From IMG/VR virus record IMGVR_UViG_3300027708_000015: 64,000 bases of DNA; one strand, given 5' to 3'. The notes under the pieces were generated by a model that ran no database searches, was not told where the DNA came from, and saw only the letters and a list, made by a program, of their open reading frames with translations. Numbering within the stretch: position 1 is the stretch's first letter; every line of letters begins with the position of its first letter. This DNA comes from a virus. Taxonomy: Duplodnaviria; Caudoviricetes. Both the position numbers and the translations under genes were made by a program. Below, in pieces: positions 1 to 64,000 of this stretch.

Positions 1-44
1 ACACAGTGCGTATACAAAGCCTTACTGGCTTGGTAAATGTTTAA
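1..44 (+). CDS. 3' end of an upstream gene (…TVRIQSLTGLVNV*), probably structural; truncated by the window
   Basis: Open frame from nt 3 to TAA at 42-44, followed by a GGGG SD-like site and the ATG at 55. Confidence 0.5.
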   Translation, partial: TVRIQSLTGLVNV

Positions 45-54
45 GGGGCTATAG

Positions 55-2244
55 ATGACATACACAGTTTCATTTACTGACTCAACAAATCCTGCCAAAC
101 CTCCGATTACAGTTGCAGACGGTGCGCTAAACAATCAAACCAGTTTGTCACTGGTAGGTCAAAATTATTCAGGATATGGGCCTGTAATAGCAGGAAACTT
201 TTTACATCTGTTAGAAAATTTTGCCAGTGGTATTGCTCCTATCAATCCTGTTCAAGGACAATTATGGTACGACACCAATGTAAATTCCAACATACTTAGA
301 GTATACAACGGAACTCAATGGATAGAAGCAGGAGCACTGAAAAAAGCCACAGCAGCCAATCAACCTAGTGTTTCGGCCAGTGTAGCAGGAGACCTATGGG
401 TCGACACTACCAACAGTCAACTTTATCTATTTTCAGGTGCAAGCTGGTTATTGGTTGGTCCCACATACAGTGCAGGATTGCAAACAGGTCCAATAGTAGA
501 GTCTATAGTTGATACTTCGAACATAAGCCACCCAGTTATTTCGATGTATGTAACTAGTACAACAGACAATATATCTTATCGACTTGCAATAATAAGCAAA
601 GACGCATTTACTCCCAAGTCTAGCATCATCGGATATCAAACAATCAAAGAAGGTGTAAACTTATATTCAAACAGTTTAACCAAAGATTCCGCCACTATCT
701 GGGGAACTGCTGACGTGGCCAACAATTTACTGGTTGGTTCCAGCACAGTGCCAGCGGCAAATTTTTTAAGATCGGATGTAACCAGCACTTCAAACAGTGT
801 TCTAAATATTAGAAATGCAGGCGGCTTGAGTATAGGAAATGATCTCAGTTTCAATATTTCACAAGGCCCAACGGCCTTTACGCTATTTTCTAAAAATACC
901 ACAAGCAGTATTGAATTCAGTGTAAACGGAAGTACGCTGTTACATTTAGATCCATCTGGATATGTGGGCGTGGGTGCAGGAAATACATCCCCTGCCACCG
1001 CTCTCAGCGTAGCAGGAGTTGTAACTTCGGGTATAGCAGGTGCACCTGGCGGACTGATAGTGACTGATGGAGCAAGTCCTATACCAACTACAGTGTTAAC
1101 TGTCAGCACTACCGGTGGAATCACCACGTCTCTGAACATGACCTCTACAGGCAATTTGTCAGTGGGCGGTGTAGTCACAGTTGGATCTGGATCAGCTGGC
1201 GGCGCAGTAATATTACCGGCACCTTCAGTTTCGGTTCCGCTATTTGATATAGGTTCGGCCAGTCAGCCTTTTAGAAACATATATGCCAACACATTTACCG
1301 GCAGTTTTACCGGAACATTCGTTGGCTCAGTAACAGGTAATGCCAGCGGCACCGCTACCGCACTACAAAATCCTACACAATTTTCCATTACTGGCGACGT
1401 AATTACCACTGCTCCAATCAATTTTACTGGAAATTCAGGACCAGCTACATTAACTACCTTGGTCAGCAACACAATGATTTCGGGAAAGACGGCAGCTACC
1501 GGAGCCAGTGCAACAGATCAAATGTTGGTATTGCAAACAAATGCCAACACTTCAAATCTAGTCAGCATGACAAGACAGACTTTTCTATCCGGGGTAGGCA
1601 TTTTTGCAATACCGGCTGGAGTTATGATGCCGTTTGCTGGCCCAGTGTCTGCAATTCCTGTGGGATGGTTGTTATGTGATGGCAGTGAGATCAGCACAGC
1701 TACATACAATCAATTGTTTTTAGCGATAGGGTTTGTGTACAAGGCACAAATAAATCTATCGGGCGTAAACACGTTTGCTCTTCCGGATATGAGGGGTCGC
1801 ATGCCGTTGGGATTAACCAACATGAACAACTATGGAAACATTCCTGGATTTACTCAAGCTGTCAACAGTAGTGGACAAACGGTTAATACAGGCGGCCAGC
1901 GCGGCACAGTGACAGGAGTGATAACACAAAGTGCAAATCAAACTCCAGCATCTATACTAGGAGCGGTTGGTGGATCCGACGGAACAGTACTATCAGTTGG
2001 CCAGATTCCCCAGCACAAACATAAACTAAGTACTACCAATGCTCAATACTATGCTCCGGGTGTAAATGGAGGATCTCCAGACACTAATGCTTCTCAAGGA
2101 TACAGCATACCGCCAGGCGGAACAGGTTACGGATTGACCAATACCGGAGATATGACAACTGGTGGTGCCGGTGATAGTGTAAACTTGATAAATCCTTTTA
2201 TGGCAGTTAACTATATAATCTTTACTGGTGCAGGACTAAGCTAA
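55..2244 (+). CDS. Tail fibre protein with C-terminal tail-collar domain (short-tail-fibre-like)
   Basis: Collar signature IPAGVMMPFAG..GWLLCDGS..YNQLF..TFALPDMRGRMPLG; S/T/G-rich shaft; N-terminal module LVGQNYSGYG..NFLHLLENFA..GQLWYD shared with the next two genes. Confidence 0.8.
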   Translation: MTYTVSFTDSTNPAKPPITVADGALNNQTSLSLVGQNYSGYGPVIAGNFLHLLENFASGIAPINPVQGQLWYDTNVNSNILRVYNGTQWIEAGALKKATAANQPSVSASVAGDLWVDTTNSQLYLFSGASWLLVGPTYSAGLQTGPIVESIVDTSNISHPVISMYVTSTTDNISYRLAIISKDAFTPKSSIIGYQTIKEGVNLYSNSLTKDSATIWGTADVANNLLVGSSTVPAANFLRSDVTSTSNSVLNIRNAGGLSIGNDLSFNISQGPTAFTLFSKNTTSSIEFSVNGSTLLHLDPSGYVGVGAGNTSPATALSVAGVVTSGIAGAPGGLIVTDGASPIPTTVLTVSTTGGITTSLNMTSTGNLSVGGVVTVGSGSAGGAVILPAPSVSVPLFDIGSASQPFRNIYANTFTGSFTGTFVGSVTGNASGTATALQNPTQFSITGDVITTAPINFTGNSGPATLTTLVSNTMISGKTAATGASATDQMLVLQTNANTSNLVSMTRQTFLSGVGIFAIPAGVMMPFAGPVSAIPVGWLLCDGSEISTATYNQLFLAIGFVYKAQINLSGVNTFALPDMRGRMPLGLTNMNNYGNIPGFTQAVNSSGQTVNTGGQRGTVTGVITQSANQTPASILGAVGGSDGTVLSVGQIPQHKHKLSTTNAQYYAPGVNGGSPDTNASQGYSIPPGGTGYGLTNTGDMTTGGAGDSVNLINPFMAVNYIIFTGAGLS

Positions 2245-13059: not shown

Positions 13060-13060
13060 A

Positions 13061-13318
13061 TTATGCTCCGGTAGCAGGTGCTGTAGCAGGTGCTGGTTGT
13101 TGTGTTCCGTCGGCGGGTTGTTGTTTAGCGACCAGTTCTAAGAATGCTGTCAACTTGTTGTAAGTTTGGCCAACTGCAACCATTTCATTGGGTTTGAATG
13201 CGCCACGTGAGCTAGCAATATCAATAATAACTTTCATGGCGTTAAGATCGTTAATAGTTAGATCTGTGCCAGAAGCTGTTGGATCTGCTTGCTGTGGTGT
13301 TTGTGCTGTATCAGTCAT
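13061..13318 (-). CDS. Hypothetical protein
   Basis: 85 aa ORF, AGGAG SD; Q/P/A-rich ends. Confidence 0.55.
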   Translation of the reverse strand: MTDTAQTPQQADPTASGTDLTINDLNAMKVIIDIASSRGAFKPNEMVAVGQTYNKLTAFLELVAKQQPADGTQQPAPATAPATGA

Positions 13319-13351
13319 GGTATCTCCTTAATATAATCTGTACGTATATAA

Positions 13352-13639
13352 TTATCTCTGTGATAAATGTGGACAGGCAATCGTGAAAAAACTTAATTCT
13401 TTTTCACTTTCAAAACCTATCTGTGTATTGTATACAATAGTGTTGGTGTTGTCTAAAGCAATTCCTTGCCCTATATAGTACCTATTATTTAAATGATGTC
13501 GTATCCATAGATCTATGGATTTGAGCATTGTTGGATTGTATCGATCCAAGTATGTGTACTTGAAATGCGGACAGGCAAATTCAACCCTCCGTAGACCAAA
13601 ATAGTTTAGAGGATTTGGTTTGCCTGTCTTCAGTGCCAT
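13352..13639 (-). CDS. Hypothetical protein
   Basis: 95 aa ORF, TAATG-coupled to the VWA gene. Confidence 0.55.
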   Translation of the reverse strand: MALKTGKPNPLNYFGLRRVEFACPHFKYTYLDRYNPTMLKSIDLWIRHHLNNRYYIGQGIALDNTNTIVYNTQIGFESEKELSFFTIACPHLSQR

Positions 13640-14823: not shown

Positions 14824-14852
14824 TTCTGCTCCTAATTTTTTACTATAAGTAT

Positions 14853-14881
14853 ATTATAACACCTCCCGAAGGAGGTGTCAA
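14853..14881 (-). promoter_or_regulatory. Consensus sigma70 promoter TTGACA-17-TATAAT whose spacer is a UUCG-capped hairpin
   Basis: Minus strand TTGACACCTCCTTCGGGAGGTGTTATAAT; 8-bp stem 14859-14866 / 14871-14878. Confidence 0.8.
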
Positions 14882-14887
14882 CCAATC

Positions 14888-31492: not shown

Positions 31493-34162
31493 TTAGAACT
31501 CAAATAATGAATTAAAAGTATTCTTTTCTTCTGTACTGGCAACATCCCATTTGAGAACACCAATCAAGTTATCTAGTTTATTATCAATAATGGTCTGTTC
31601 CATTTCTGCATGATCAAACGGCAAGTCTTTGAACCATTGTGGCAGTCGTAGTTCATCTACAGGATATGCAACTGATGTAAAGCCCAGGGGGTTGGGTTTG
31701 AGTTTACACACAATAACCTTGGCACCGTCGGTAATGGCCATTGAATACTTGTCATCATACATGCGCTTGAGTGTGTTCCAGTTGATACTGGCACGAACAT
31801 GTCCAGGCATGTTGGCTTTGCCCTGTTTCTTTTCCTTGGCCTGATACTCTGTGATGTTGTTGGCACGTTTAGGACTACCTTTTTCCCAACCTGGTCGAGC
31901 TTTGAATTTGATACGGAATTCGCTGATATGGTCAAGCACTTCCTGTTCAGGCTTGCCCATCAATACCATTTCAAGAACATCGCTTAAAAAGTTTTGAATA
32001 AATTCCGGAGTGTCACTGCGCTTCAAATCCAAGCCCATGGCTTTGATCTTGCCAGGCTTGCCATCTATATCCTGACGTTTACCTTCTTTGTCATATGACA
32101 GCACTGCATAACGCTTCTTGGTAATAAACAAGCCTTTGAGAGCAACAATCTCGCGACCAGCTTTGATAACATCACCACGCGATTTAGGCACATGAAATGC
32201 GTCCAGCATAAACTGCGGGAATGTTTGATTGACTTCGTCACCTATTTGATCATACAGTTGGATCACAGTTTCTTTTGTCCAAGGAATCAGTCCAGCTTCG
32301 ATGTCTTTTTGTAGTGTTTTGTAAGCTGAGAAGTAACAGGAGTCAGTGTCACCATAGATAACTGCCTTACCTATGTGATTGTATTCGCCTGTTACAATTT
32401 CATTTACTTTACTCGCCATATGTTTTGCGATTTGGCGCCCGACCAGCGTTGTTGATTGTCCGATTCGTTTATCAAAGAATCTGCAACCGCTGTTAAGAAT
32501 AGCACCGTACAGGCTATTAAGATTAATTTTCTTAACAAGCTGTCGCTTATCCCAGTATTCTTCTTCGACTTTGTTTCCTGCATTGATAGACTCCTTTAGT
32601 TTGGCCTGCATCTCTTTACGTTCTGCATACCAGCGTTTAAGTAGCCCCGGAATGATACCTTCATTTTCGTGACTGAAGATAGTGCCATTACTTGAAAGCA
32701 TCCAGGGCTGATTGCTTTCAAATATCAATCTATATACTTCTGCGGCACTGATCACATCGACATCACCGTTTTCCCAATCAATAGTGATGTCAGTGCCAAT
32801 TTCTTGATTCATCACTGATTCGTATTCATGTGTGCCGAACTTGCCTTCCCACGCGGCCGCAAAACTCTTGTTCTGCGCCATCTTGAGTTCAATGTATTCG
32901 TCAGTGCGTGTTTGACGTAGCTGTCCAATAATGGTTTCTGGACCCATGTTGAGTGCTCTAATGGCGCTGGGATAAAGACTGTTGATGTCTAGTGAGCCGA
33001 TCCAATCTTGCAATCCTTCTTTGGGATGTGCCACATAAGCACCAGCTGCCGCTGTGTTCTCATCTCTATCGTCTTTCTTGATACGATTGGGAACAACAAA
33101 TCCTCTGCGGTGAGCTTCATTGATAATGGCCTGCTCGGTCACAGCCACAGCACCCATTGTGGTTTGTAGCAACACAGTATTTTCATGTGCCAATGTATTG
33201 GCTAGATCCATGAACTTGAGTTTCTTATCTAATTTTTCAAGAAGCATACAGTCGTTGATGTTGTATTCAACGAACGTTTTAAAATCGTTGTTGTACAGTT
33301 GATCCAGTGTGCCTTCGTACTGTGTTTTGCGCTCACCCAGTTCATATTCTGCGATAGCATCTAGCCTGTAGGTGTGACGTTCTTCATAGGTGTACTTGCG
33401 ATACAGTTCAAGGTAGTCTAGATGTACACGACCAATGTAGTCATAGGTCACACTGTCACGACCGTATTTTTCATATTCTCTGCGTTTGGGAAATTGATCG
33501 AATAAACAAAACCTACGTGTGTCTTCTTTGCTCAGTGCTTTGACTACACGGTTAGTGGTATAGGGAATATCAAAGCCTTCCGAGTTCCAGCCACTGATAA
33601 CATCTGCATCTTTGATCAGATCCAAAAACATGTCCAGCAAGTCAGCTTCTTTTTCAAACAGGTACGTGTTGGGAAAGTCTTTGACCATCTCCTTGGCATC
33701 TTCCATCTTGAGACCCTTGGGCGGAATAGCTAGACAAACCATAGTTTCCATCCATTGTAGGTAAACCGCAATGGCAGTAATGGGCATAAATGCATCATCT
33801 GGCGATGCATAGCCACGCTCGGGATCAAAGTCTACCTCAATATCGAAAAATGCCACATTGAGTTTGGGAGGATCTGCGTTGAGATAATTTTCTGACAGGG
33901 TAACAAATATGGGATTGATGTCTGCTTCATACAGAGTCTTGCCACTGTTGATGGCTTGTTCTTTACGAAGTTCTTTGGTATTTTTACAAACGATCCGTTG
34001 TACAGGATCTCCGTATATGGAGGTGTGTTTGCCTCTAGGATCTTTTACATAGAAAGTGTGACGAACAGGAATATCACGGAACTCCCTTTCACCTTTCTTG
34101 TTGCGTTCAACGATCTTGATGATGTCGTTGTCGCGGTCAAACCATGCGTCTACGTAAGACAT
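31493..34162 (-). CDS. polB: Family B DNA polymerase with 3'-5' exonuclease
   Basis: FFDIEV (ExoI), WNSEGFDIPY (ExoII), SLDINSLYPS, KINLNSLYG, YGDTDS, KKRYA. Confidence 0.97.
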   Translation of the reverse strand: MSYVDAWFDRDNDIIKIVERNKKGEREFRDIPVRHTFYVKDPRGKHTSIYGDPVQRIVCKNTKELRKEQAINSGKTLYEADINPIFVTLSENYLNADPPKLNVAFFDIEVDFDPERGYASPDDAFMPITAIAVYLQWMETMVCLAIPPKGLKMEDAKEMVKDFPNTYLFEKEADLLDMFLDLIKDADVISGWNSEGFDIPYTTNRVVKALSKEDTRRFCLFDQFPKRREYEKYGRDSVTYDYIGRVHLDYLELYRKYTYEERHTYRLDAIAEYELGERKTQYEGTLDQLYNNDFKTFVEYNINDCMLLEKLDKKLKFMDLANTLAHENTVLLQTTMGAVAVTEQAIINEAHRRGFVVPNRIKKDDRDENTAAAGAYVAHPKEGLQDWIGSLDINSLYPSAIRALNMGPETIIGQLRQTRTDEYIELKMAQNKSFAAAWEGKFGTHEYESVMNQEIGTDITIDWENGDVDVISAAEVYRLIFESNQPWMLSSNGTIFSHENEGIIPGLLKRWYAERKEMQAKLKESINAGNKVEEEYWDKRQLVKKINLNSLYGAILNSGCRFFDKRIGQSTTLVGRQIAKHMASKVNEIVTGEYNHIGKAVIYGDTDSCYFSAYKTLQKDIEAGLIPWTKETVIQLYDQIGDEVNQTFPQFMLDAFHVPKSRGDVIKAGREIVALKGLFITKKRYAVLSYDKEGKRQDIDGKPGKIKAMGLDLKRSDTPEFIQNFLSDVLEMVLMGKPEQEVLDHISEFRIKFKARPGWEKGSPKRANNITEYQAKEKKQGKANMPGHVRASINWNTLKRMYDDKYSMAITDGAKVIVCKLKPNPLGFTSVAYPVDELRLPQWFKDLPFDHAEMEQTIIDNKLDNLIGVLKWDVASTEEKNTFNSLFEF

Positions 34163-46555: not shown

Positions 46556-47164
46556 TTAGCTTTTAACAATGCGTTCTATTTTGGAGATACTTTCGCCTAG
46601 ATGCATCTTGACTATCAAAAGATTGTTATCACCTGTGACATAGCAGTGTGTGCCACCCCAACTGCGCTGTTTTCCTAGATCTCTTATACAGCTTTTGGTC
46701 AGTTTGCACTTGGGACTAGTTTCAGCCCACTCAACAAACGCAGGGTTAGGATGCAGTGTTCGCCCAAGTGTGATACGATAATCGTAATCCATCTTGGGCA
46801 TAACAATGGTATTTTCTGCTAGGGTAGTATTTGCAGATGGCTGACTTATATACTTGACTTTGCTTTTATCCAGCTTGATCAGTTTATCTATCTGTTTGCG
46901 ATCATTGGTGTAGACCGTGATCCAAGGTGCTTCTACTCTGATATCAATATCTGGTATCTTTTGCAAAGTTGATGCTAACAGTAGGGCGTAGTCTAAATCT
47001 TCTTGATCTCTTACTGTGTTTACACCACCATTGGAACTGATAGATAATTTAGATATCTTTTCAAAAAAATCTCCGCTACGAAACCAGCTGGCGCCAGCAA
47101 TGGCCAACACTATCTTGTATTGGTACTTGCTTTTGAATAGTTTTGTAGTTGTTTTAACCTGCAT
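46556..47164 (-). CDS. Hypothetical protein (likely start MQVKTT)
   Basis: ORF track 46556..47176; overlaps the clpA end. Confidence 0.55.
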   Translation of the reverse strand: MQVKTTTKLFKSKYQYKIVLAIAGASWFRSGDFFEKISKLSISSNGGVNTVRDQEDLDYALLLASTLQKIPDIDIRVEAPWITVYTNDRKQIDKLIKLDKSKVKYISQPSANTTLAENTIVMPKMDYDYRITLGRTLHPNPAFVEWAETSPKCKLTKSCIRDLGKQRSWGGTHCYVTGDNNLLIVKMHLGESISKIERIVKS

Positions 47165-49439
47165 CTGGTATCTCAACCAACGAAGCGGCAGAATCCACAG
47201 TCAGCAAAGGAACATTTTTAGATTCTTTTCCTTTGCTCACTATTACCAACTGATCTGCATTTCTGCTGATAGTGGCCCAACCACCATTCTTTAAATCACC
47301 AAACAGCATGAGTTTGGCCAACGGACGTTTGATTTCTTTGTCAATAACACGTTGTAGAGGACGAGCACCCATCTTAGGGTCAAACCCTTTCTCAATAAGA
47401 TACTCTATAGCATCTTTGTTGATCTTGATACGAATAGCTTTGTCCTTGACCTGCTCACGTAGTTCATCCATAAACTTGCCCACAATCTTGACCATGGTAT
47501 CTTTGCTGAGCTTGCTAAATGTAACAACCCCATCTAAACGATTGCGGAACTCTGGAGTAAAGAACTTTTTCAAATCTTTATCGCTATAGTCCTTTTCTTG
47601 ACCACCAAAGCCGATTGCATTCTTTTCAGCATCGGCAGCACCGGCATTGGTTGTTAGAATTAGGATCAAGTTGCGACAGTCGGCTCGTTTGCCATTGCTA
47701 CCGGTTATAGAGCCATTATCCATCAGCTGTAGTAACACAGTCATTACATCTGGATGAGCCTTTTCAACTTCGTCTAGAAGCAAAACAGCATTTGGGGCTT
47801 CTTGGATCTGTGTAATCAGTTGTCCAGCATCTTCTTCAAACCCAACATAGCCCGGTGGACTACCAATCAGCTTACTGATACTGTGTTTCTCTTGATACTC
47901 ACTCATATCAAAACGTAGCAGTTTTACACCTAGATTCTTGGCCAACTGTTTGGCAGTTTCAGTTTTGCCAGTACCCGTTGGACCCATGAATACAAATGAT
48001 CCGATCGGTTTGTTTTCTGATTTAAGTCCTGCTTGTGCCACCATGATCTTATCTACAACTTCTGTTATAGCTAAGTCTTGACCATACACCACCTGTTCAA
48101 GATTTTCTTGTAGGTTACTGAGATTTGCACTTTCAGTCTCCATGATCTTTTCTTCGGGCATGTTAATCATCTTGGCCAGCTCATACTGTACTTCACGTTC
48201 AGTGATGATTCGCTCATCTGCAAGTTTGAGATTGAAACGACTACATGCTAGGTCGATCAGATCGATTGCCTTGTCAGGTAGTTTCTTATCTGTCTGATAC
48301 TTGACCGACAGTTTGATAGCCGCTTGTAATGCATCATCACGGATTTTGGTATTATGAAATCCTTCGTAGTATTTCTTAATACCTTTAAGGATCTGCAGAG
48401 TCACTTCAATTGTGGGTTCGTCAACAGTGATACGTTGGAAACGACGCATCAGCGCACGATCCTTTTCAAAGTGCTTGCGATATTCTTCCCAGGTAGTCGA
48501 TGCTACAACTTTGATGTTGCCTTTGCTTAGAGCCGGTTTCATCATGTTAGCGAGATCGTTAGCTGAGTTGCTAGCAGATCCTGCGCCACTGATCATGTGT
48601 GCCTCGTCGATGAACAGCACAGTCTTACCTTTCTTTTGCAGTGCTTTGATAACTTGTTTGAAACGTTCTTCAAAGTCACCGCGATACTTACTACCGGCCA
48701 ACATGGCACTGATATCTAAACTATAGACTTTATATTCTTTCAAAAACTCCGGAACTGAACCGTTTACAATATTAAAGGCAAGTCCTTCTGCAATAGCAGT
48801 CTTACCAACACCTGGATCTCCTACGAGAATCACATTGTTTTTATTGCGACGACCCAGTGCTAGGGCAATATTTTCTAGTTCATCAATACGACCAATTACT
48901 GGATCAATCTTCTTTTTAACTACTAGATCATTTAGGTTGCTTGTAAATTGATTTAAAGCTCGATCGCTATTCATGTCGGCGCCGCCTGTTTCTTCTTCAG
49001 CGTCTTCAGTGCTGTTGTTAATGTAATCAGCAAATTTATCTTTGTCAATATTTGCCTGTTGGATATAAAACACAGCCCAGCTACGCTTCTCGCCCATCAT
49101 AGCAAGGAATACATCTGTTGGTTCAATACGTTGCCGTCCATTGAACAACACTTGAGTGAATGCACGATTAAGTACACGCTCTACACTTTGTGTCTTTTTG
49201 GGTTTGACTACCACATCCGGAACAGTAATTTCACCGCATTTGTTTTGCAAGTAGTCTGTTAAACTATTCTTAAGCAAACTGGGATCACTGCCGTATCCTT
49301 GTATAGAACTAGTAAAAGTTTCATCAGACAACATAGCCGCCAGCAAGTGTTCTATTGTTAGATATTCATGATGCAGTTTTTTAGCAGTTTCGATAGCCTG
49401 TTCAAAAACTGCTTGTAAGTTGTCGCTGGGTTCAACCAT
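47154..49439 (-). CDS. clpA: ATP-dependent Clp protease ATP-binding subunit ClpA
   Basis: Clp N domain, two AAA modules (GDPGVGKT, LFIDEAH; GPTGTGKT, LLDEVEK), IGF loop (NAIGFGG), MGARPL. Confidence 0.92.
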   Translation of the reverse strand: MVEPSDNLQAVFEQAIETAKKLHHEYLTIEHLLAAMLSDETFTSSIQGYGSDPSLLKNSLTDYLQNKCGEITVPDVVVKPKKTQSVERVLNRAFTQVLFNGRQRIEPTDVFLAMMGEKRSWAVFYIQQANIDKDKFADYINNSTEDAEEETGGADMNSDRALNQFTSNLNDLVVKKKIDPVIGRIDELENIALALGRRNKNNVILVGDPGVGKTAIAEGLAFNIVNGSVPEFLKEYKVYSLDISAMLAGSKYRGDFEERFKQVIKALQKKGKTVLFIDEAHMISGAGSASNSANDLANMMKPALSKGNIKVVASTTWEEYRKHFEKDRALMRRFQRITVDEPTIEVTLQILKGIKKYYEGFHNTKIRDDALQAAIKLSVKYQTDKKLPDKAIDLIDLACSRFNLKLADERIITEREVQYELAKMINMPEEKIMETESANLSNLQENLEQVVYGQDLAITEVVDKIMVAQAGLKSENKPIGSFVFMGPTGTGKTETAKQLAKNLGVKLLRFDMSEYQEKHSISKLIGSPPGYVGFEEDAGQLITQIQEAPNAVLLLDEVEKAHPDVMTVLLQLMDNGSITGSNGKRADCRNLILILTTNAGAADAEKNAIGFGGQEKDYSDKDLKKFFTPEFRNRLDGVVTFSKLSKDTMVKIVGKFMDELREQVKDKAIRIKINKDAIEYLIEKGFDPKMGARPLQRVIDKEIKRPLAKLMLFGDLKNGGWATISRNADQLVIVSKGKESKNVPLLTVDSAASLVEIPDAG

Positions 49440-54451: not shown

Positions 54452-55171
54452 ATGAGTAAACAACGAGTGAAAAAGCGTTTTACATCAGAAGTTAATATCA
54501 TTGATTTTCAGCCGTATCTTCCGGCAAAAAAGCAACGTGTGAGCATTAATGCACGTAACGCTAATCAGAAACTATATCTCAGTAAACTGTATGCAGAGAA
54601 CACTAGCATAGTACTTGCTATTGGTCCTGCCGGCACGGGTAAAACCATGTTGGCTGTACAGTATGGTGTCAAATTGTTTCAGGAAGGTAAAGTTGATAAG
54701 ATCGTGGTAACCAGACCCGCCGTGTCCGTAGATGAAGATTTGGGATTTTTACCAGGTGACTTAAATGAAAAGATGGCACCATGGACCCGTCCTATATTTG
54801 ATGTCTTGGGCGAATATTATCAGAAAAAAGAAATAGCAAGTATGCTAGAGGAAGGTACTATTGAAATAAGCCCACTGGCCTATATGCGAGGACGTACATT
54901 TAAAAACGCATACATAGTTGCAGATGAAATGCAAAATGCCACGCAGAATCAAATGAAAATGCTACTGACCCGACTAGGAGAAGGGTCCAAGATGGTAGTG
55001 ACAGGCGATCTAGCACAAGCAGACCGAGTGAGCGATAATGGTCTGATTGATTTTTGCAATCTACTCGAACAAAAAGAATATTTGGAACATATCGACATTA
55101 TTCGATTTGACGCCAAGGACATCGAACGCCATAATGCCGTGAAGGAGGTGCTTGCGGTTTATGGAGAATAA
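54452..55171 (+). CDS. phoH: PhoH-family ATPase
   Basis: GPAGTGKT, TRPAV..LGFLPG, PLAYMRGRTF, ADEMQNAT, TGDLAQ. Confidence 0.95.
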   Translation: MSKQRVKKRFTSEVNIIDFQPYLPAKKQRVSINARNANQKLYLSKLYAENTSIVLAIGPAGTGKTMLAVQYGVKLFQEGKVDKIVVTRPAVSVDEDLGFLPGDLNEKMAPWTRPIFDVLGEYYQKKEIASMLEEGTIEISPLAYMRGRTFKNAYIVADEMQNATQNQMKMLLTRLGEGSKMVVTGDLAQADRVSDNGLIDFCNLLEQKEYLEHIDIIRFDAKDIERHNAVKEVLAVYGE

Positions 55172-56215: not shown

Positions 56216-56617
56216 TCAATGCTCGAAGCTGGGTCTTGCGAATGTGCTTGGATCAACAGTTGCATGTGTAACAGTTGCGTGGGCACCGTAGATGATTTGA
56301 TTGGGTTTCTCGTCTGTGACCATTAAGATAGCCTTGACCTCGGCACGACGAATGATAATTTCTGTGCCGTCCTCTTCAACTACTGTAACGCCGCGTGTCC
56401 AACGTCCGTGTTCAAGTAAGATCCATTCACCCACTTTAACATCTTTTTGTTCAGGACCAACAGCCCAAACCCGCCCCCAGCGTGATTTGACACCTTCGCT
56501 TTTGCCGTCATCGCTGAGTAGCACTAGACCACCGGCTGTCTTTTGTTCACCAAATTCCATATCTGTGATCAATACATTATCACGTATGGGGATTAGTTTA
56601 CCTGTTACTTTTGACAT
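56216..56617 (-). CDS. groES: GroES/Cpn10 co-chaperonin
   Basis: LIPIRDNVL..EQKTAGGLVL..GRVWAVGP..VKVGEWIL; C-terminal extension. Confidence 0.85.
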   Translation of the reverse strand: MSKVTGKLIPIRDNVLITDMEFGEQKTAGGLVLLSDDGKSEGVKSRWGRVWAVGPEQKDVKVGEWILLEHGRWTRGVTVVEEDGTEIIIRRAEVKAILMVTDEKPNQIIYGAHATVTHATVDPSTFARPSFEH

Positions 56618-56932: not shown

Positions 56933-57442
56933 TTATCTCAGGAATTCCTGCCAGTCTAAATTATATTTGACCGAATCTATCTGATGCACACCCAATAAAA
57001 ACAGCACAAAGCTGGCCACACTGCTTCCGCGTCCTACTCCCCATACAATACCATTTTCGTTGCAGGTATCTACAAAGTGTTTGGTCCATTGTAGTAATGG
57101 AATCATGCCTCGCTCGTTGTATGCCGCCATTTCTGCGGTAACGCGAGCAATTTGCTCTGGAGTAGTGCATCGAAGCAAACACCAATCTTCTACATCAAAA
57201 TCTTTGTATTCCTGCGGCATGAACCAATCACTTTGCAGTGCGGAATCAAAGTCTTCAATAGTGATAGTGTCTAATTGTTCGTTGAATTTTTGAAAGGTAA
57301 ATCCAGCAACATGTTCTAATTGTTCAATATCTTCGGTGTAGTCTACTGTGATATCTTTAAGATTGGAAATTTTTCCTTGGTAAAGGAATTTGAATATATC
57401 TTGTGAATTGAAAATGGGATTACTGAATTTGTCTAGGCGCAT
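56933..57442 (-). CDS. Stand-alone fragment resembling part of DNA polymerase III alpha (DnaE)
   Basis: GIVWGVGRGSSVASFVLFLLGVHQIDSVKYNLDWQEFLR matches DnaE GRGS..S…LGI..DP..Y.L.FERF, but the ORF stops before the catalytic PDID motif. Confidence 0.7.
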   Translation of the reverse strand: MRLDKFSNPIFNSQDIFKFLYQGKISNLKDITVDYTEDIEQLEHVAGFTFQKFNEQLDTITIEDFDSALQSDWFMPQEYKDFDVEDWCLLRCTTPEQIARVTAEMAAYNERGMIPLLQWTKHFVDTCNENGIVWGVGRGSSVASFVLFLLGVHQIDSVKYNLDWQEFLR

Positions 57443-57685: not shown

Positions 57686-59265
57686 CAGTATTGACCCATG
57701 TATCTTAGATTAACAGTGGTACCTGCGTTTGTAGTAAAGGCATAGATTACTTTGGTCTTGCTTGCTGTACCGCTGGTCAGTGTTGTAATAGCAGATGCAA
57801 CAGTACCTGGATTAGCACCTGTGATAGTAACTGACGGTGGAGTAGAAGTATACCCAATACCTGGACTTGTAATAGTCAATGCACCAATTCCGCAACTGAG
57901 CACAGCTCTTGCTCCGCTACCTGTACCGGTAATAGTTTGTATTTGATAAAGTGCCGCAGATAAAGGATTAGTAAACGTACCACATGGTGTGCCAGTAAAC
58001 GTACCAATTGGGCCTGTAGTGCTGGTGTATGTGACTGTTATAGTTTGAGTAACAGCACCTGTAGCATTTAGGTTAACACCACCGCTATCTCCCATTACTA
58101 TAGAAAATATTCCGGCACCTATTGTACCAATACTCTTTATTTGAGCCCCAACCGGTATCGTAGTTCCACTAAGTGGCATGCCAATTGATAGCAGACTAAA
58201 ATAGCTAGCAGGAATATTGCCAATGTTTGGTTGACCTCCTACTATTTGACCTGGGAATGTAGTAGATAGTGTGGCCACTTGCAAGTATGTGTTGGGATAA
58301 CCAACAACACTGACAAGGTCACCGACAGCGTATCCGCTGCCAGCTATGCCACCCTGTATGGTGCCACCTGATGCATAATTTGCAGTTGCAGGACAAGTAA
58401 CAGTGACACTGGTTTGTGTACGACCAGTAATGACCCATACACCGTTATATGCCGACGGGGTAACTCCTGTAACCAAAATACTTTGTGTGTTTACAAAAGG
58501 TATAACATTATTAGTCCCGCTATACTGACTGGTAAACGTAAATGTAGTACTAGTTCCACTTCCGGCATTGTTAGTTATACCTGTTATTGTTATAGGCGTA
58601 GGTGCCAAGTTGGCCACACTGGCAGATACAACTGTGTAGCTAGGAGTAGCTGAAGGAGTGACAGCACCTGTTTGTGGACTGCCCCCACTGAATCCCACTA
58701 CCACTGCACTGGTATATCCAGTCCCGGTCCCGGTAACAGAAACAGATGCTACACTTTCGCCACCCACACTCAATGGTGATGGAAACGAAGTATCATATTT
58801 TATTGAGCCGTTTGTGGTAGCAAATGTAGGAGTCCATACTCCGTTGGTGTCGCTAGTAATAAGAATGATGGCATCTGAAAACACGCTGGTTGCGTTGTAT
58901 GCAGGCCAATTGGTAAATGTCAATGTAGCATTACCAGCCAAGGTGAATTTTTGTACAGCACCGATAGATAGGTCAATATTGGTTGCCGATGCAACTCCAC
59001 TGGCGCTGTATAACGATCCTGAAAATTGTTGGTAAAGCCCGTTACTGAGTGTACTGCCCAGTAGGTTGTTAACCACAGGTAATGTCTGCGTGGCTAGGTC
59101 AGCTTTGAGTATCGTGGACGATTGTAAGGCCGATATCTCGCTGGCCGCAGTGGTAAAATCAGCTACGATGGCAGCAAAATTACTACGAAAGCCTTGACTA
59201 TCGTTGTCTTGCCCTGCTACAGGGAAAGTGGTTGAAATTGTTGAGGGGTTTATTGCACTTGTCAT
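57685..59265 (-). CDS. Virion structural protein (tail/baseplate-associated) with S/T/G-rich beta repeats
   Basis: N-terminal FPVAGQDNDSQGFRSNF, short coiled coil, repeated G.GYT/A beta motifs; late promoter upstream. Confidence 0.6.
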   Translation of the reverse strand: MTSAINPSTISTTFPVAGQDNDSQGFRSNFAAIVADFTTAASEISALQSSTILKADLATQTLPVVNNLLGSTLSNGLYQQFSGSLYSASGVASATNIDLSIGAVQKFTLAGNATLTFTNWPAYNATSVFSDAIILITSDTNGVWTPTFATTNGSIKYDTSFPSPLSVGGESVASVSVTGTGTGYTSAVVVGFSGGSPQTGAVTPSATPSYTVVSASVANLAPTPITITGITNNAGSGTSTTFTFTSQYSGTNNVIPFVNTQSILVTGVTPSAYNGVWVITGRTQTSVTVTCPATANYASGGTIQGGIAGSGYAVGDLVSVVGYPNTYLQVATLSTTFPGQIVGGQPNIGNIPASYFSLLSIGMPLSGTTIPVGAQIKSIGTIGAGIFSIVMGDSGGVNLNATGAVTQTITVTYTSTTGPIGTFTGTPCGTFTNPLSAALYQIQTITGTGSGARAVLSCGIGALTITSPGIGYTSTPPSVTITGANPGTVASAITTLTSGTASKTKVIYAFTTNAGTTVNLRYMGQY

Positions 59266-62200
59266 ACTGTTATCCTATCGTCTCTGAATACAAGATATTT
59301 ATCGCTTGTGTAACCGGTGACAGCAGAGATCGTGAATCTGTCTACGGTGTAGTCTATAGTGTTGAAATCAAATCCACTATGCTTGATATTAAGGGCTATG
59401 CCGGCACTAGTTCCTGGTTTACAGAAGCAAATTGGCACACAAAGTACATATCCCGGCTGTGCTTTAGATCCTTTAGGGATACTGCGCATCCAAAGCGGCA
59501 AGTAATTGCGCTCGGTTAATCCAACAGTACCTATACGTTTTTGCCAATTAGTGATACTGTTGTTGTAATAGGTGTTTGTGTTCGGGTTGCTGACTTCATA
59601 ACCTGTACTGTCCACGGTTATCTCATAAGCAGGTCGCACATTCGAAGGTGCGCTAGCAGTCAAGTCGCTAAGATTAGTTGACCATATGCTGTTGCTATCA
59701 TCCACTGTGATGGTTTGCGGTGCTGAACTACCTGTATTGAATGAAGCAGAGGGATGCAGGTTGTCTGGCTCAGACGGATCAAGCATCTGTATATACACCA
59801 CTTCGTACACATTGCTATTGGAGTTGGGATCAACTGCAATAGCTGTTTTAACACTGCCGAATTTGAATCTTTTTCTCTTTACTCCTAGCCCTATTGCACC
59901 AACATAAGCTGCCGCTGATTCTGTTTGGATACCAGCATATACTAACATCTTTAGATTGGGTTGTAAGCCAAATGATGGATCGTTAGTTCTATAGATACTG
60001 TTGGGAGTGAATATGGCTGTGTTATTTACAAATGCCTTCCATGCATTGCGTTGTGTTGGTGCCAAGAATGGTTGAGTGTACACGTTGCTGTATGGAACTG
60101 TATTTGGTGTAGTTACAGATATGGTAAATGTTTTTGGCAGTGCGCTGTATTGATAGGAGTCACTGGCAGTTACAGTAAATTGGAATGATCGGTTAAAAGT
60201 AGTCAGATTCTTGTCAAAGGTAGTGTCACTGTTATTGAAGGTGGTCAATCCCAGCAAACCTGTAGTGCCATTATAGTATTGATTCGGAGTGCCAATAATC
60301 TCGCCATCGGAGGTCAACTGTAAACCAGGTGGCAAACTTCCACTAGTTATTGTGTACAACACTGTAGTGTTGATCACATTACTACTGGCAGATATACTCA
60401 AGGTAGATGGATAAGCCGCCGGTATAGAACCGATATTGGAAGGTGTATTCCAAGTTATCTGGCTAGTGACACTGCCTAGTATCAAAATGTTAAAGGTTTT
60501 AAAACTGATTACAGTTTCTGTACTTAGTAATGATGCTGAAGATCTAACAGCAGTCACAGTAAAGGTATACGATGTTGTGATAGCTGGAGTATAGGGCACA
60601 CGACCAAAAATTTCACCAGTGTTGACATCGAAACTGGTTCCCAGTGGCAGTTTGGTCAACGACCCTATGTAAAATACACTAAGGTCCGGTGGTGCTAGAT
60701 CTAATGGACGATTGAGAGTTAATCTGTACGATCCAGATCCTAAACTGGCTACTTTGGATATTTGATATAGAGTTTCCGTAGCACCTGCTATGTAGTTGTT
60801 AAATGTAAAATATTGTCCCACTAGTGGAGTGCCGCTGGCATTGATTATGCTGAGAGTGGTACCGCCATAGATAATGATAGTAGAAGCTATGGAAGATATG
60901 GTACAATTATTAGACAGTGTTACAGTATATGCATTAGATGTGAATACTACACCCGAAGGTGTACCGGCAACGGTGACAACAGCACTGCCATCGCGTTTTG
61001 TGGACAAGGTAAATTGAGTAAATCCGTTGGTAGCAATGACATAGTATACCGATGATGTGGTTGCATTGGTATAGTTTGAAATCATTTGTGGTATAGAAAA
61101 TTGTCCCGATACAGTGATTCGTTGTCCCACATACAGTTGTTGGCTAGTATAAGCGCAAGAAAATGTTCCTCTAACTCCAGTGATCACAACAGAGGCTAAT
61201 GTTAAATCACTGCTCACACTGTTGATCAAAGTTCCTGGTGGAATACCGTCTGATTGGACACTTTGCCCTACCTGATACACATTGGCATTATTGACATCAG
61301 TTATGATATTGCTACCTGCTGTGATATTGCCGCGTATGCTCAGTGACTGTATATTGTCAGTCAACGCTATTCTTTTGGTTTGGGCATAAACTTCACAATT
61401 GGTGGTTTCTAAACGGAATATCACGTCCTTGCGGTCATACAGTAGAACAGGAACAGTTAGATAGTTATTGGCTCTGAATGTACCAAGATTAGACTTTGAC
61501 AGCCAAACTGGGTTTCTGAGAAAACTAGAGTCTGCAGTAAATGCACCCGCGAACCCGTCAGTGCTGGTTGAGTCAGCTCGAAACTGATCAGTTCCCAGTA
61601 CAAATATCTTAAAGATACGTTGAGCACTGGTTACTCCGTCTGATACTGTAACTTTAAATTGATAGTTTTGATTAAGAGTGCTAGGTACACGCACATTAGA
61701 ACTGTAGTCCCACGTTACATCATCGTACTGATAACTGTCAAAACCGTCCGTAGGAACAACAGCAAAGTCGTAGCCGGCATTATCAAAATAGGTATCATCA
61801 AATGCACCACTTCCGTCTGATACTGAGATCACAGTTTGTGGATTAGGTAGTACATAACCACTGATCAACCCGTCATCACTTAGTGTAAGTCCCGGAGGAA
61901 GATTACCATCACCACTTGCTATAAAGTATTTTAAATGAGCACCTAATACAGTATTTAGATCAAATGCTTCTATCTGATAAGCAACAAAGTTGCTGTCTAA
62001 GGTGTATAACTGTTGATGAACTCCTACTGGTAAATTACCTGCGGGAGTTAAAAATACAGGAGCATTGGCTCCGTTTATCTGCATGGTAAACGTACGATCA
62101 GCAAATCCTGAGCCGTTTGTTGCAACACTGGTGATATTTTTTGTGATGTTTACGGCGAATGTACCGTCACCGTTGGGCGATACTATGTAAGTTCCTACAG

Positions 62201-64000
62201 GAATGCCAGGTCCAGACAAGACCATTCCTTGCAAAAATGTGCCAGTGGTAGTTCCGCCTGGTATAAATTTGCCAGCATTGAATCTGGCGGCAGTTGACTT
62301 GGCAGTACTGCTGGCTCTAATGCAGAAATTGTAAGTGGGCGTTCCTTGTGTGACAAATGGACTTCCAATGATTGTACTACCTTGCAATATCAATCCAGGC
62401 GGTAATGATCCACTAACCACCGTAAATGTTATTCCAGCAGTATCGGACAATGGAGGAGGACTAGTGCTAGGTGATCGAGCAACTATGCTTGGAACAGCGC
62501 CTGAAATAAGGTCTGCACGTTCTACTGCTACAAATGCATCAGTCTGCATGTGTACTGTATCAGTATTACGTAAAATTATATCAGATAAAGTAGTGTTATT
62601 AATCCAGGTTAAATCTGTTGGATTCCATGGTTGATTTTGATACCAAGATTGATCGCCATCTCGTAATCGACTCATTTGATCTGCTATGATGGCACGGAAT
62701 GTTGGACCTACCATTGCTCCTGGATAGCGATCCTCTGCAAGACCGCCAACCCATAAATCTATGTCATTAATATTAACATAAGCTGAATGTAATGCATTGG
62801 CTGTAGTTGCATCGCTAGTAATTTGACTAAAGCTAGTATATGCTGAAAACCCTAATGCTACACGCATTTGATTTAAACTTGGAAGGCCTAAATCACGCCC
62901 ACGTTGTATGTTTGTTGCGGCAAGATCTAACGCTGCCGGAGGATCGTTAAGCAAGTTACGTAAGTCTTCAATAATGTATACATCTAATTTGTTAGATATA
63001 TCGCTGGCTAATTTTCTTAAGAATCCGTTTGCGCCACCGTTGCGTTCATACTGTGCAGGTGTTAAGAAAAACGCTTGTCCTAAAGTTAAAGATTCTGTAA
63101 TGTTGCCCGCTTCATCTACACGATCTTGTGCGCCAGACACTATGCTATGGCCAAAGCGTAGTGCCGCGGCAGCAAATTCTATTTTTATACTTGCATCGAC
63201 TTCAGGTTTAAATCCAGTGTAAGCAGATATCGCATCATTACCGATAATCTTTGGTAACCATTCTTTGTAAGTAATGACTTGTTCTTCTGCAATAACAATA
63301 TTGCGGGCACGTTGATATAACTGTTCACCCGTCCAAGATGGATTAGCCGCACGTAGCTGATCAACATGCCAGTTGTGTTCTCTAATGAATAATGTTTGTA
63401 TAGACGTTAAATCCGGATTTTCAGTTCCACGGGGATCTCCAAACAAAAATGATCCATTAACAATGGGACCATATTGTCCGTTGCTAGATGTTAACAATTT
63501 GCCAGTAGTGGCGATTGAACCGCCTTCTCGCAATAATACTGGGTTAGTAAATCCACTAACTGGTGTAACACCGGGAGGGTATGCAATACCATAAACTACA
63601 CTACCATCGATCCATCCAGTTACATCGTTGATTGGTAGTGCAACAATGCCATTGATCCCAGTACCTGCGGCAACCTGCGCACGAGATACAGGAATATGAC
63701 TACCTGGTGTTAGGTTAGTATCTCCAGCAGGTACTATAACATCGATATTAGCACCGCCAGTTCTTTCACTAGCTAGTTCATGAGTTATGAATTGACCCCA
63801 TGCATACATGAATCCACTATAGCCAGTTGGATCAACAGTTTCACCTTCATTTACTTGATCCCATACTACTAAATTACTAACTGTGCGAGCATTGGCTAGA
63901 TCAGTACGCATAGCATGTAAGCCATCTGTATAGCTGTTTACTGCATTTCGAGCAAATGGTGCTCCTGCACTATTGCGTAACGGTGCTGTAGGATGGTGCC
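59262..64000 (-). CDS. Large baseplate-wedge-like structural protein with Ig-like repeats and an N-proximal animal-type heme peroxidase domain; 5' end lies outside the window
   Basis: Frame stays open from 63911 to the window edge (HHPTAPLRNSAGAPFARNAVNSYTDGLHAM…); peroxidase motifs WGQFITHE, IDGSVVYG, GDPRGTEN, REHN, RFGHS, NIQRGRD; SGSLPPGL Ig-like repeats; acidic FD-rich segment. Confidence 0.8.
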   Translation of the reverse strand, partial: HHPTAPLRNSAGAPFARNAVNSYTDGLHAMRTDLANARTVSNLVVWDQVNEGETVDPTGYSGFMYAWGQFITHELASERTGGANIDVIVPAGDTNLTPGSHIPVSRAQVAAGTGINGIVALPINDVTGWIDGSVVYGIAYPPGVTPVSGFTNPVLLREGGSIATTGKLLTSSNGQYGPIVNGSFLFGDPRGTENPDLTSIQTLFIREHNWHVDQLRAANPSWTGEQLYQRARNIVIAEEQVITYKEWLPKIIGNDAISAYTGFKPEVDASIKIEFAAAALRFGHSIVSGAQDRVDEAGNITESLTLGQAFFLTPAQYERNGGANGFLRKLASDISNKLDVYIIEDLRNLLNDPPAALDLAATNIQRGRDLGLPSLNQMRVALGFSAYTSFSQITSDATTANALHSAYVNINDIDLWVGGLAEDRYPGAMVGPTFRAIIADQMSRLRDGDQSWYQNQPWNPTDLTWINNTTLSDIILRNTDTVHMQTDAFVAVERADLISGAVPSIVARSPSTSPPPLSDTAGITFTVVSGSLPPGLILQGSTIIGSPFVTQGTPTYNFCIRASSTAKSTAARFNAGKFIPGGTTTGTFLQGMVLSGPGIPVGTYIVSPNGDGTFAVNITKNITSVATNGSGFADRTFTMQINGANAPVFLTPAGNLPVGVHQQLYTLDSNFVAYQIEAFDLNTVLGAHLKYFIASGDGNLPPGLTLSDDGLISGYVLPNPQTVISVSDGSGAFDDTYFDNAGYDFAVVPTDGFDSYQYDDVTWDYSSNVRVPSTLNQNYQFKVTVSDGVTSAQRIFKIFVLGTDQFRADSTSTDGFAGAFTADSSFLRNPVWLSKSNLGTFRANNYLTVPVLLYDRKDVIFRLETTNCEVYAQTKRIALTDNIQSLSIRGNITAGSNIITDVNNANVYQVGQSVQSDGIPPGTLINSVSSDLTLASVVITGVRGTFSCAYTSQQLYVGQRITVSGQFSIPQMISNYTNATTSSVYYVIATNGFTQFTLSTKRDGSAVVTVAGTPSGVVFTSNAYTVTLSNNCTISSIASTIIIYGGTTLSIINASGTPLVGQYFTFNNYIAGATETLYQISKVASLGSGSYRLTLNRPLDLAPPDLSVFYIGSLTKLPLGTSFDVNTGEIFGRVPYTPAITTSYTFTVTAVRSSASLLSTETVISFKTFNILILGSVTSQITWNTPSNIGSIPAAYPSTLSISASSNVINTTVLYTITSGSLPPGLQLTSDGEIIGTPNQYYNGTTGLLGLTTFNNSDTTFDKNLTTFNRSFQFTVTASDSYQYSALPKTFTISVTTPNTVPYSNVYTQPFLAPTQRNAWKAFVNNTAIFTPNSIYRTNDPSFGLQPNLKMLVYAGIQTESAAAYVGAIGLGVKRKRFKFGSVKTAIAVDPNSNSNVYEVVYIQMLDPSEPDNLHPSASFNTGSSAPQTITVDDSNSIWSTNLSDLTASAPSNVRPAYEITVDSTGYEVSNPNTNTYYNNSITNWQKRIGTVGLTERNYLPLWMRSIPKGSKAQPGYVLCVPICFCKPGTSAGIALNIKHSGFDFNTIDYTVDRFTISAVTGYTSDKYLVFRDDRITV
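59296..59303 (-). promoter_or_regulatory. T4-like late promoter (GATAAATA) inside the 3' end of the baseplate gene
   Basis: Recurrent motif 31 nt upstream of 59265. Confidence 0.55.

Follow-up and report, generated by a model that had tools for sequence, protein, structure and literature searches.

At one end of a 64,000-nucleotide (nt) stretch of viral DNA (IMG/VR record IMGVR_UViG_3300027708_000015; the whole stretch that was analysed is referred to here as the window) lies a long minus-strand gene encoding a peroxidase-cyclooxygenase domain, a series of immunoglobulin-like (Ig-like) domains and a conserved C-terminal domain. Its source is an uncultured freshwater jumbo myovirus-like phage. 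Judged by comparison with solved enzymes, the gene carries a genuine peroxidase-cyclooxygenase domain with an apparently intact active site, for which haem binding and turnover are predicted, and this domain appears to be nested within the first Ig-like domain of a scaffold that carries other modules in other phages. The parts of the gene that bear on the peroxidase, given by position in the window, are as follows.

59262–63998, minus strand: the peroxidase-scaffold open reading frame (ORF), a single ORF, stop codon included.
62532–63983, minus strand: peroxidase-cyclooxygenase domain (An_peroxidase, PF03098), residues 6–489 of the part of the protein encoded in the window, its first residues lying beyond the edge.
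63777–63800, minus strand: WGQFITHE, with the distal Gln, the distal His and a Thr in place of the haem-ester Asp, from alignment to 8s6c, DdPoxA, EPO and MPO.
63588–63620, minus strand: TGWIDGSVVYG, the Ca site, from alignment to solved peroxidases.
63417–63440, minus strand: GDPRGTEN, with the distal Arg and the haem-linking Glu, which aligns as the equivalent of DdPoxA Glu-236 (PMC5787809).
63372–63383, minus strand: REHN, a motif located in the expected order.
63144–63158, minus strand: RFGHS, with the proximal haem-ligand His, from alignment to solved peroxidases.
62892–62912, minus strand: NIQRGRD, with the Asn partner of the proximal His, from alignment to solved peroxidases.
62433–62531, minus strand: P/S-rich return linker (SPSTSPPPLSDTAG; VAVERADLISGAVPSIVARSPSTSPPPLSDTAG) leading from the peroxidase to the Ig-like domain, from the sequence and from bridging contigs.
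62055–62432, minus strand: C-terminal part of the first He_PIG/cadherin-like domain (ITFTVVSGSLPPGL...FCIRAS...DRTFTMQING), delimited by comparison with orthologues that lack the peroxidase.

The reading frame is uninterrupted from the window edge at 63998 to the stop codon at 59262–59264 and comprises 1578 codons within the window. The true start of the gene, which an earlier note made from the sequence of this stretch had left to be retrieved, could be read from a second IMG/VR contig, IMGVR_UViG_3300027749_003047 (133,387 bp; locus L033, handle G001), which overlaps the last 743 nt of the window at 100% identity. The ATG lies 47 codons past the window edge and is separated from the preceding ORF by a spacer of 11 nt, and the full-length protein is about 1625 amino acids (aa) long, with no internal stops. 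No signal-peptide-like stretch was seen in its N-terminus (MPLNIWTQPTGYSFG...), as judged by eye, no predictor being used. Contig L033 is linear according to IMG/VR and 36% complete according to CheckV, and the genome would therefore be roughly 350–400 kb in size; orthologues also lie on related contigs, one 345 kb long and 94% complete, the other 400 kb long and 100% complete. Neither the whole 1578-aa protein (tblastn) nor 20 kb of the window (megablast) gave any match in 50,697 cultured-phage records.

The peroxidase assignment is carried by a match to An_peroxidase (PF03098) that extends over profile positions 14–530 of 530 (E 3.4e-114; 382.8 bits against a cut-off of 25). By sequence, the closest solved relative is the peroxidase of Cyanobacterium TDX16 (8s6c_A; E 1e-82, about 48% identity), and the other solved relatives include DdPoxA (6erc; E 9e-62), the mammalian enzymes EPO, MPO and LPO, and the peroxidase domain of DUOX1. 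We also modelled residues 1–640 of an orthologue, L007, with AlphaFold2 (AF2); this protein has a complete N-terminus and shares 88% identity with the window protein over the peroxidase domain. When compared with 48,161 PDB representatives, the peroxidase part of this model matched DUOX1, MPO, 8s6c and DdPoxA at Z scores of 22–26. The Pfam match and the alignment to solved peroxidases bear out the reading in the earlier note of a peroxidase of about 490 aa with all of the motifs listed above in order, and the alignment likewise shows the Thr that it had placed at the position of MPO Asp94.

In the distal Ca2+ site, the motif T-x-[FW]-x-D-x-S is present as TGWIDGS and is conserved among the copies. 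The Asp that follows the distal His is Glu in the window protein, and Asp or Glu in its relatives. Among the phage copies, whose identity falls to about 73%, none of the catalytic or Ca-site residues varies. At the ester-Asp position, Thr is found in 14/14 of the phage-type copies aligned there, whereas Asp is found in 11/11 of the bacterial relatives; the Thr is a signature of the phage clade and not a random lesion. The protein is therefore not of the type with two ester bonds (LPO, EPO, LspPOX): with the Glu kept and the Asp replaced by Thr, it is predicted to be of a DdPoxA-like type with one ester bond. The ratio of nonsynonymous to synonymous substitution rates (dN/dS) over the peroxidase domain is 0.08–0.22, a range which indicates that the insert is kept under purifying selection.

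The P/S-rich linker and the in-frame Ig-like repeats described in the earlier note are present in the sequence, and the junction, which that note feared might be an assembly chimera, is real. The same in-frame architecture recurs in contigs from more than 10 other metagenomes (L001, L004, L005, L006, L007/L008, L009/L010 and L011/L014/L017), the peroxidase-bearing orthologues of which are proteins of 1343–1639 aa, and Logan contigs from three other studies span the junction itself (X6 record 20, X7 record 28 and X16 record 5). Near-identical DNA is present in the freshwater metagenomes of 13 studies. The junction-spanning contig X16 record 5 comes from a lake metatranscriptome (RNA) library, and contigs of this kind suggest that the gene is transcribed. 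In one run, X2, the summed contig depth was higher over the peroxidase module, because several co-occurring strains share a near-identical peroxidase module. A single X2 contig also joins window position 61748 to 62357 and so omits 608 nt, its shorter arm being just 28 letters long; the probable source is a co-occurring strain whose first Ig-domain region is shorter or otherwise different, as in L007, which is without the 56-aa sub-insert described below.

Orthologues with and without the peroxidase both exist, and the comparison between them, which the earlier note had proposed, shows how the domain is set into the scaffold. Proteins without it (789–1092 aa) run from MxLNVWTQPSGYSFGTFxExxxxxLPLPV straight into xTFxVISGxLPxGL...FCIRAS...DRTF, so that a single He_PIG domain is read through without interruption. 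In the peroxidase-bearing proteins, the N-terminal residues (about 30) are followed by the peroxidase of about 490 aa with its two linkers, and then by the remainder of the same Ig-like domain. In the window, the opening strands of this first He_PIG domain (the N-terminal 30 aa or so) lie outside the sequence, and the domain contains a lineage-specific sub-insert of about 56 aa. The L007 model was used here only for the topology of the N-terminal strands and the post-insert segment; its mean predicted local distance difference test (pLDDT) score was 57.5, with values of 69–79 in the N-terminal strands and 75–83 in the post-insert segment. Single cadherin-like domains align across the model range 1..631 with 82–100 residues aligned, as in the case of SraP (4m02_A; Z 9.4, root-mean-square deviation (rmsd) 2.6 Å, 86 residues aligned). 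As the post-insert segment alone has only about 60 residues, these alignments must take in the N-terminal strands as well. The sequences and the model together fit a true domain-in-domain insertion, the insertion point being the loop that follows the opening strands of the N-terminal Ig-like domain. Thus, the fusion to Ig-like repeats reported in the earlier note is indeed in frame, but it is not a terminal one: the peroxidase is inserted within the first Ig-like domain.

The nearest proteins outside the phage family are peroxidases of uncultured bacteria, 650–750 aa in length and 50–54% identical; some of these are labelled as coming from metagenome-assembled genomes of Mycobacterium sp., and some carry RTX repeats. 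For those without a name, the label 'bacterial' rests on their architecture. In a tree with these nearest bacterial peroxidases, the 15 phage-type domains fall on one side of a branch supported by a Shimodaira–Hasegawa-like approximate likelihood-ratio test value (SH-aLRT) of 97, and this fits a single capture of the peroxidase by phages. On a tree of the scaffold (C-terminal 420 aa), the presence of the peroxidase needs 9 changes, at least 6 of them forced by well-supported branches, and the closest scaffold relative of the window protein, L002 (81% identity), is without it. Furthermore, the window peroxidase is 96–97% identical to those of L004 and L005 (synonymous divergence, dS, 0.13–0.29), whereas the corresponding scaffolds (59265–60482) are only 55–60% identical, with dS saturated. 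The module therefore behaves as a mobile, selected one, exchanged by recombination and/or repeatedly lost, and intact where present. Such recombination and/or repeated loss is usual for the host-interaction modules of tail genes. The module and scaffold identities of the window, L004 and L005 point to recent recombinational spread of the module.

The scaffold itself was examined by an exhaustive HMMER search with the non-peroxidase part of the protein (residues 490–1578) as the query, in which all counts refer to representatives at 50% identity. Three parts can be distinguished in it after the first Ig-like domain.

60483–62054, minus strand: middle region with further He_PIG-like domains (GNLPPGL at 61887–61907), from alignment A1 and the Pfam He_PIG match.
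60111–60482, minus strand: one confidently modelled cadherin-like (He_PIG) domain before the C-terminal domain, the remainder being less confident, from an AF2 model.
59265–60110, minus strand: conserved C-terminal alpha/beta domain (ERNYLPLWMRS, CxC), the signature of the family, P0001 residues 1297–1578.

The family comprises 1257 clusters at E<=1e-3 and 498 at E<=1e-30, with proteins of about 450 to 1644 aa, and all of the members whose source was visible come from viral contigs or phages. Most representatives keep the N-terminal motif, and the N-terminal end is the variable, module-bearing end of the scaffold. The peroxidase is present in 3 of the best 150 representatives (P0125, P0127 and P0268). 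A YHYH domain (PF14240) was found in 5/13 of the long members scanned (P0152, P0163, P0190, P0165 and P0204), and in the first three of these it follows the same leading strand, and hence occupies the same loop as the peroxidase; a literature search on the YHYH domain returned no relevant report. One long member, P0225, carries CBM_5_12 above the Pfam cut-off, and the only relative from a cultured phage, gp329 of Agrobacterium phage Atu_ph07 (L051:9442–13194), carries Peptidase_S8. This loop of the Ig-like domain may therefore behave as a general insertion socket for modules. The He_PIG assignment (PF05345) rests on three stretches matched by Pfam at E 1.2e-8, and models of the He_PIG domains match SraP and cadherin modules at Z 8–9.4 and rmsd 2.3–2.7 Å; in the C-terminal model described next, matches to cadherin and SraP modules cover residues 6–130 (Foldseek and VIA). 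Of the 17 sequences in alignment A1, just L001 and L002 align over a stretch of about 200 aa in the middle region (residues 886–1089 or so). The sole PHROG matched by the protein is phrog_29085 (function unknown; E 2.6e-5).

The C-terminal 280 aa or so are the most conserved part of the protein, and an alignment of the last 409 aa of 24 orthologues contains 51 invariant columns. An AF2 model of residues 1170–1578 (pLDDT 72.6) shows a cadherin-like domain followed by an alpha/beta domain. The top structural match of the latter with VIA-align is Usb1 (6pfq_C; Z 10.3, rmsd 3.7 Å, 173 residues aligned), with CPDase, LigT and AKAP18 also matched, and a viral Atlas cluster of LigT/Acb1 type matches it with a template modelling (TM) score of 0.73 and an rmsd of 3.2 Å over 167 aligned residues. 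The model thus has the two-lobed 2H fold, with moderate scores. However, the two H-x-T/S-x motifs of active 2H enzymes were not found, there being no His in the invariant or near-invariant columns of the 24 orthologues, and no Pfam 2H family was matched. An active 2H phosphoesterase can therefore be ruled out; without a conserved His, the domain is at most a degenerate 2H fold in structural use. It looks like the fold of an enzyme that has lost its activity and now serves for structure or anchoring, and it is presumed to be the anchor to the virion.

The earlier note had seen a likeness to a baseplate wedge in this C-terminus, and had spoken of a catalytic baseplate. Neither description was supported by our searches. 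No baseplate family was matched in the protein by Pfam or PHROGs, whether of the T4-type wedge proteins (gp6, gp7, gp8, gp10, gp11, gp25 and gp53) or any other; profiles of the scaffold (A1 and A2) gave only a chance-level Ig match against all PDB chains, among which the solved T4 baseplate chains are assumed to be included; and no phage baseplate chain was among the top 50 matches of the C-terminal model to the 48,161 PDB representatives in VIA-align. Foldseek of the same model against the PDB returned only cadherin and Ig matches, because Ig domains dominate the model, and a feature search of the C-terminal domain in the ESM Atlas gave no usable match.

The genes on either side of the peroxidase gene resemble those of a tail region, and are listed here with their positions in the window or in contig G001.

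57685–59265, minus strand: downstream fibre-like partner gene, 526 aa, the ATG of which overlaps the stop codon of the peroxidase gene (ATGA).
G001:C1 about 1922–15168 (L033:2–8818 with L046; L033:8818–9072; 9012–9848): three upstream ORFs with a gp9/gp10 N-terminal domain, by Pfam and PHROG.

All three of the upstream ORFs begin with the N-terminal domain of T4 gp9/gp10 (PF07880, two of them above the Pfam cut-off; phrog_677, 'baseplate wedge tail fiber protein connector'). They differ greatly in size (a 4416-aa open frame, 84–100 aa and 278–295 aa), and look like paralogous attachment modules with very different payloads. On the downstream side, the ATGA overlap is found in 20/21 related loci, with a 46-nt gap in its place in L039. 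The N-terminal 50 aa or so of the downstream protein (YPVAGQDNDSQGFRDNF; MTSxINxSxIxTxYPVAGQDNDSQGFRDNF) are almost invariant in all 21 loci, and its C-terminal parts are variable (187–621 aa across the 21 loci); a conserved N-terminus with a variable remainder is the usual pattern in fibres that keep a constant attachment end. This protein matched no Pfam family, and in the Atlas structure search it gave weak rows of tail-fibre or Mtd_N type. The neighbourhood thus resembles the periphery of a T4-type baseplate, with gp9/gp10-type genes and a fibre gene, in synteny only and not in protein homology. Pfam Baseplate_J was not matched in four related phage records, near-complete genomes included, so that the core baseplate is not placed relative to the gene.

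Further indications come from the distant homologue in Atu_ph07. Directly after gp329 lies gp328, the first 52 residues of which are 46% identical to the downstream protein of the window, and past gp328 lie the tail-fibre gene gp327 and a tail-sheath-like gene. In purified virions of Atu_ph07, mass spectrometry (MS) detected gp329 weakly (3 peptides, 2.08% coverage) and gp328 with 8 peptides and 12.74% coverage (PMC6102473 supplement). Structural look-alikes of the C-terminal part also occur in other jumbo phages, namely Klebsiella phage K64-1 and Erwinia phage pEa_SNUABM_47, and in phages of RaK2/K64-1 type. Taken together, we consider it likely, with good though not full confidence, that the protein is associated with the virion. 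The idea of virion display put forward in the earlier note is thus supported only indirectly, by a weakly detected homologue and tail-type neighbours, and the catalytic baseplate of that note is unsupported.

Elsewhere in the window, the 169-aa product of an ORF at 56933–57442 shows similarity to a DNA polymerase PHROG (phrog_11127; E 2e-37). An 889-aa family-B polymerase is encoded separately at 31493–34162, 23 kb away, and a split polymerase or an extra fragment is possible. Genes for a ClpA-like protease ATPase (phrog_4871; 47154–49439), PhoH (54452–55171), a GroES/gp31-like co-chaperonin (56216–56617) and a MoxR/CobS-like ATPase (14888–15979) make up a content typical of aquatic jumbo or T4-like phages, and ClpA is also found in Atu_ph07.

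Our preferred reading is that the protein belongs to a tail appendage and bears at its distal end a haem peroxidase that is catalytically active, is linked to its haem by one ester bond and acts on the surface or matrix of the host; we would put the probability of this at roughly 55%. In such a scheme, the C-terminal domain would anchor the protein at the tail periphery, in the baseplate or fibre region, beside the fibre made from the overlapping downstream gene, and the variable N-terminal end would point outward and display the peroxidase. Haem b would be taken up in the host cytoplasm during assembly and would be held by one ester bond, formed with the conserved Glu, with Thr standing in for the Asp partner much as Ile does in DdPoxA. 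Outside the cell, ambient or host-derived H2O2 would then drive the oxidation of iodide, thiocyanate, phenolics or tyrosines, and not that of chloride or bromide; by analogy with DdPoxA, the Thr variant is predicted to be a one-ester peroxidase for I-, SCN- and one-electron phenolic or tyrosine donors, and neither a chlorinating nor a brominating enzyme. At adsorption, the surface layer or matrix of the host would be oxidatively damaged on the spot, or the phage would become covalently coupled to it; this role would be analogous to that of the hydrolytic virion-associated depolymerases and of the subtilase that Atu_ph07 carries on the same scaffold. The presence of a subtilase and of a carbohydrate-binding module at the same position supports an outward, host-directed role, and since close relatives do without the domain, the peroxidase must be an accessory and not an assembly requirement. 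Among the roles put forward in the earlier note, oxidative attack on, or cross-linking to, material of the host surface is the most plausible, whereas bulk detoxification of peroxide is physically unconvincing; the latter is unlikely, on physical reasoning only, given the few enzyme molecules that a particle of about 100 nm could carry. A fuller picture, in which a covalently haem-linked, active peroxidase sits at the very tip of the appendage, uses H2O2 to attack the host envelope or tether the phage to it, and occupies a loop that is a general effector socket, is one that we hold tentatively, as somewhat short of an even chance.

Several points weigh against the preferred reading. The MS support comes from a homologue that is only 24% identical and was detected by 3 peptides at 2% coverage, and no solved baseplate or fibre protein resembles the scaffold by sequence or fold in the searches made. 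The predicted complex between the last 409 aa of the protein and the opening 120 aa of its downstream neighbour scored 0.02, which speaks neither for nor against binding. Confidence in the AF2 model of the nested region is low where the peroxidase itself is concerned, as the mean pLDDT reflects. Furthermore, lake water contains little iodide or thiocyanate and only sub-micromolar H2O2, so that turnover could be low.

Of the other explanations, the one that fares best, though we regard it as unlikely, is that the peroxidase serves the particle itself, either by cross-linking or hardening fibres or other virion proteins through dityrosine or similar bonds, or by shielding nearby virion proteins from H2O2 in waters exposed to sunlight. 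Structural genes of fibre-like type and very large size lie in the surroundings (the 4416-aa frame, and fibre-like genes at 55–5107), the active site is conserved, and the combination of Ig-like domains with a peroxidase recalls peroxidasin, which cross-links collagen IV. However, nearly the same scaffolds occur without the domain in L002, P0123 and P0138, so that the peroxidase is not needed for assembly or stability, which weighs against cross-linking. The subtilase and CBM5/12 modules found at its position suggest targets outside the particle, a few enzyme molecules could hardly lower the ambient H2O2 around it, and the Thr variant predicts poor oxidation of Br-, which peroxidasin-type chemistry would need.

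It is rather more doubtful that the protein acts away from the particle, as an intracellular or lysis-released enzyme directed at peroxide or at the surroundings, with the scaffold forming an adhesin array of secreted or cell-surface type. Virion evidence for this phage is indirect and the MS support from gp329 is weak, and the bacterial relatives are free-standing proteins, some with the RTX repeats typical of secreted proteins. Against this stand the position of the gene in a structural block, with ATGA coupling to a fibre-like gene, and a family of 1257 clusters whose visible sources are all viral contigs or phages; gp329 and gp328 were both detected in Atu_ph07 particles, and the N-terminus shows, by eye, no signal-peptide-like stretch.

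We think it improbable that the domain is simply a binding module, whether an adhesin resembling peroxinectin or, at the fibre tip, a domain for receptor recognition that binds haem, a porphyrin or another ligand. Such a role would suit its place at the outward, variable end of the scaffold, where a carbohydrate-binding module is found elsewhere, and peroxinectins do couple adhesion with a peroxidase fold (PMC4420034). However, the catalytic residues and the Ca site are invariant in diverged phage copies, which binding alone would not need, and dN/dS is only 0.08–0.22. Finally, the cut made in the gene by the window end and the rise in depth over the peroxidase part in one run might suggest an assembly chimera or a decaying pseudogene, but the chance of either is negligible in view of the in-frame architecture in contigs of more than 10 other samples, the spanning contigs from three other studies, the mismatch-free 743-nt overlap with L033 that supplies the ATG, the absence of stops in about 1625 codons and a dN/dS well below 1.

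If the preferred reading is right, the peroxidase would be the first virion-associated enzyme of redox (oxidative) type and would bring a new chemistry into phage entry, and the success of infection would depend in part on the levels of light and peroxide in lakes. The scaffold family, with more than 1200 clusters at 50% identity, is essentially undescribed and is seemingly a modular platform for outward-facing effector domains; placing it on a virion would aid the annotation of many jumbo-phage genomes. A compact, nested peroxidase with a predicted single haem ester bond could also be of interest for enzymology and for display engineering. To our knowledge, the virion-associated enzymes described so far are hydrolases and lyases that act on polysaccharide or peptidoglycan. 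The statement in the earlier note that no virion-displayed haem peroxidase had been described agrees with our literature searches: full-text searches for a phage or viral haem peroxidase of the peroxidase-cyclooxygenase family found none, nor was any redox or haem enzyme found among virion-associated enzymes, and a 2015 review of the superfamily does not mention viruses (PMC4420034).

Among known peroxidases, the phage domain shares its fold, Pfam family, distal Gln-His-Arg, proximal His-Asn and Ca site with the Cyanobacterium TDX16 enzyme 8s6c and with the LspPOX-type 'peroxidockerins' of Family 6 (PMC4420034). These bacterial peroxidases are free-standing, some with RTX repeats, and keep the ester Asp, whereas the phage copies have Thr and are nested in an Ig-like domain. 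DdPoxA (PDB 6erc) resembles the phage domain in that the ester Asp is absent while the Glu and the other haem-pocket residues are conserved; it is the one characterized enzyme without the ester Asp. Its haem is held by one ester link, made by the Glu at the corresponding position; its Fe(III)/Fe(II) potential is lower, and it oxidizes I- and SCN- at >1e8 M-1 s-1, with no activity on Cl- and very poor activity on Br- (PMC5787809). It differs in being a secreted eukaryotic enzyme of known activity with Ile at the Asp position, whereas the single bond and the substrate range of the phage domain are predicted only. By sequence, then, the phage domain is closest to bacterial enzymes of Family 6 type and, by analogy, would be functionally most like DdPoxA. 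Peroxidasin and peroxinectin (Families 2 and 3; PMC4420034) similarly combine a peroxidase with Ig-like or adhesion modules in the setting of an extracellular matrix. They are animal proteins, however, with their domains in tandem and not nested. Peroxidasin has two ester bonds and a Br--dependent sulfilimine chemistry. As the phage domain groups with bacterial peroxidases, no evolutionary link to these animal proteins is implied.

On the phage side, the nearest comparison is gp329 of Atu_ph07 (annotated as an 'extracellular serine proteinase' or protease; PMC6102473), which has He_PIG domains, the C-terminal domain of the family and an N-terminal enzyme module. It was found with the C-terminal 409 aa only (tblastn, 24% identity over 93% of the query, E 5e-10; Foldseek, E 6.5e-20), and is a remote relative, encoded by a soil/creek phage of 490 kb; its module is a subtilase (Peptidase_S8), joined as a plain N-terminal fusion without a leading Ig strand. 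In concept, the peroxidase would join the virion-associated depolymerases, lysins and esterases of tailed phages (review, PMC5380687), as a tail-displayed enzyme that modifies the surface barriers of the host at adsorption. Virion-associated enzymes as such are known; a haem peroxidase set in an Ig-domain socket that accepts other modules, as these sequences indicate, would be new.

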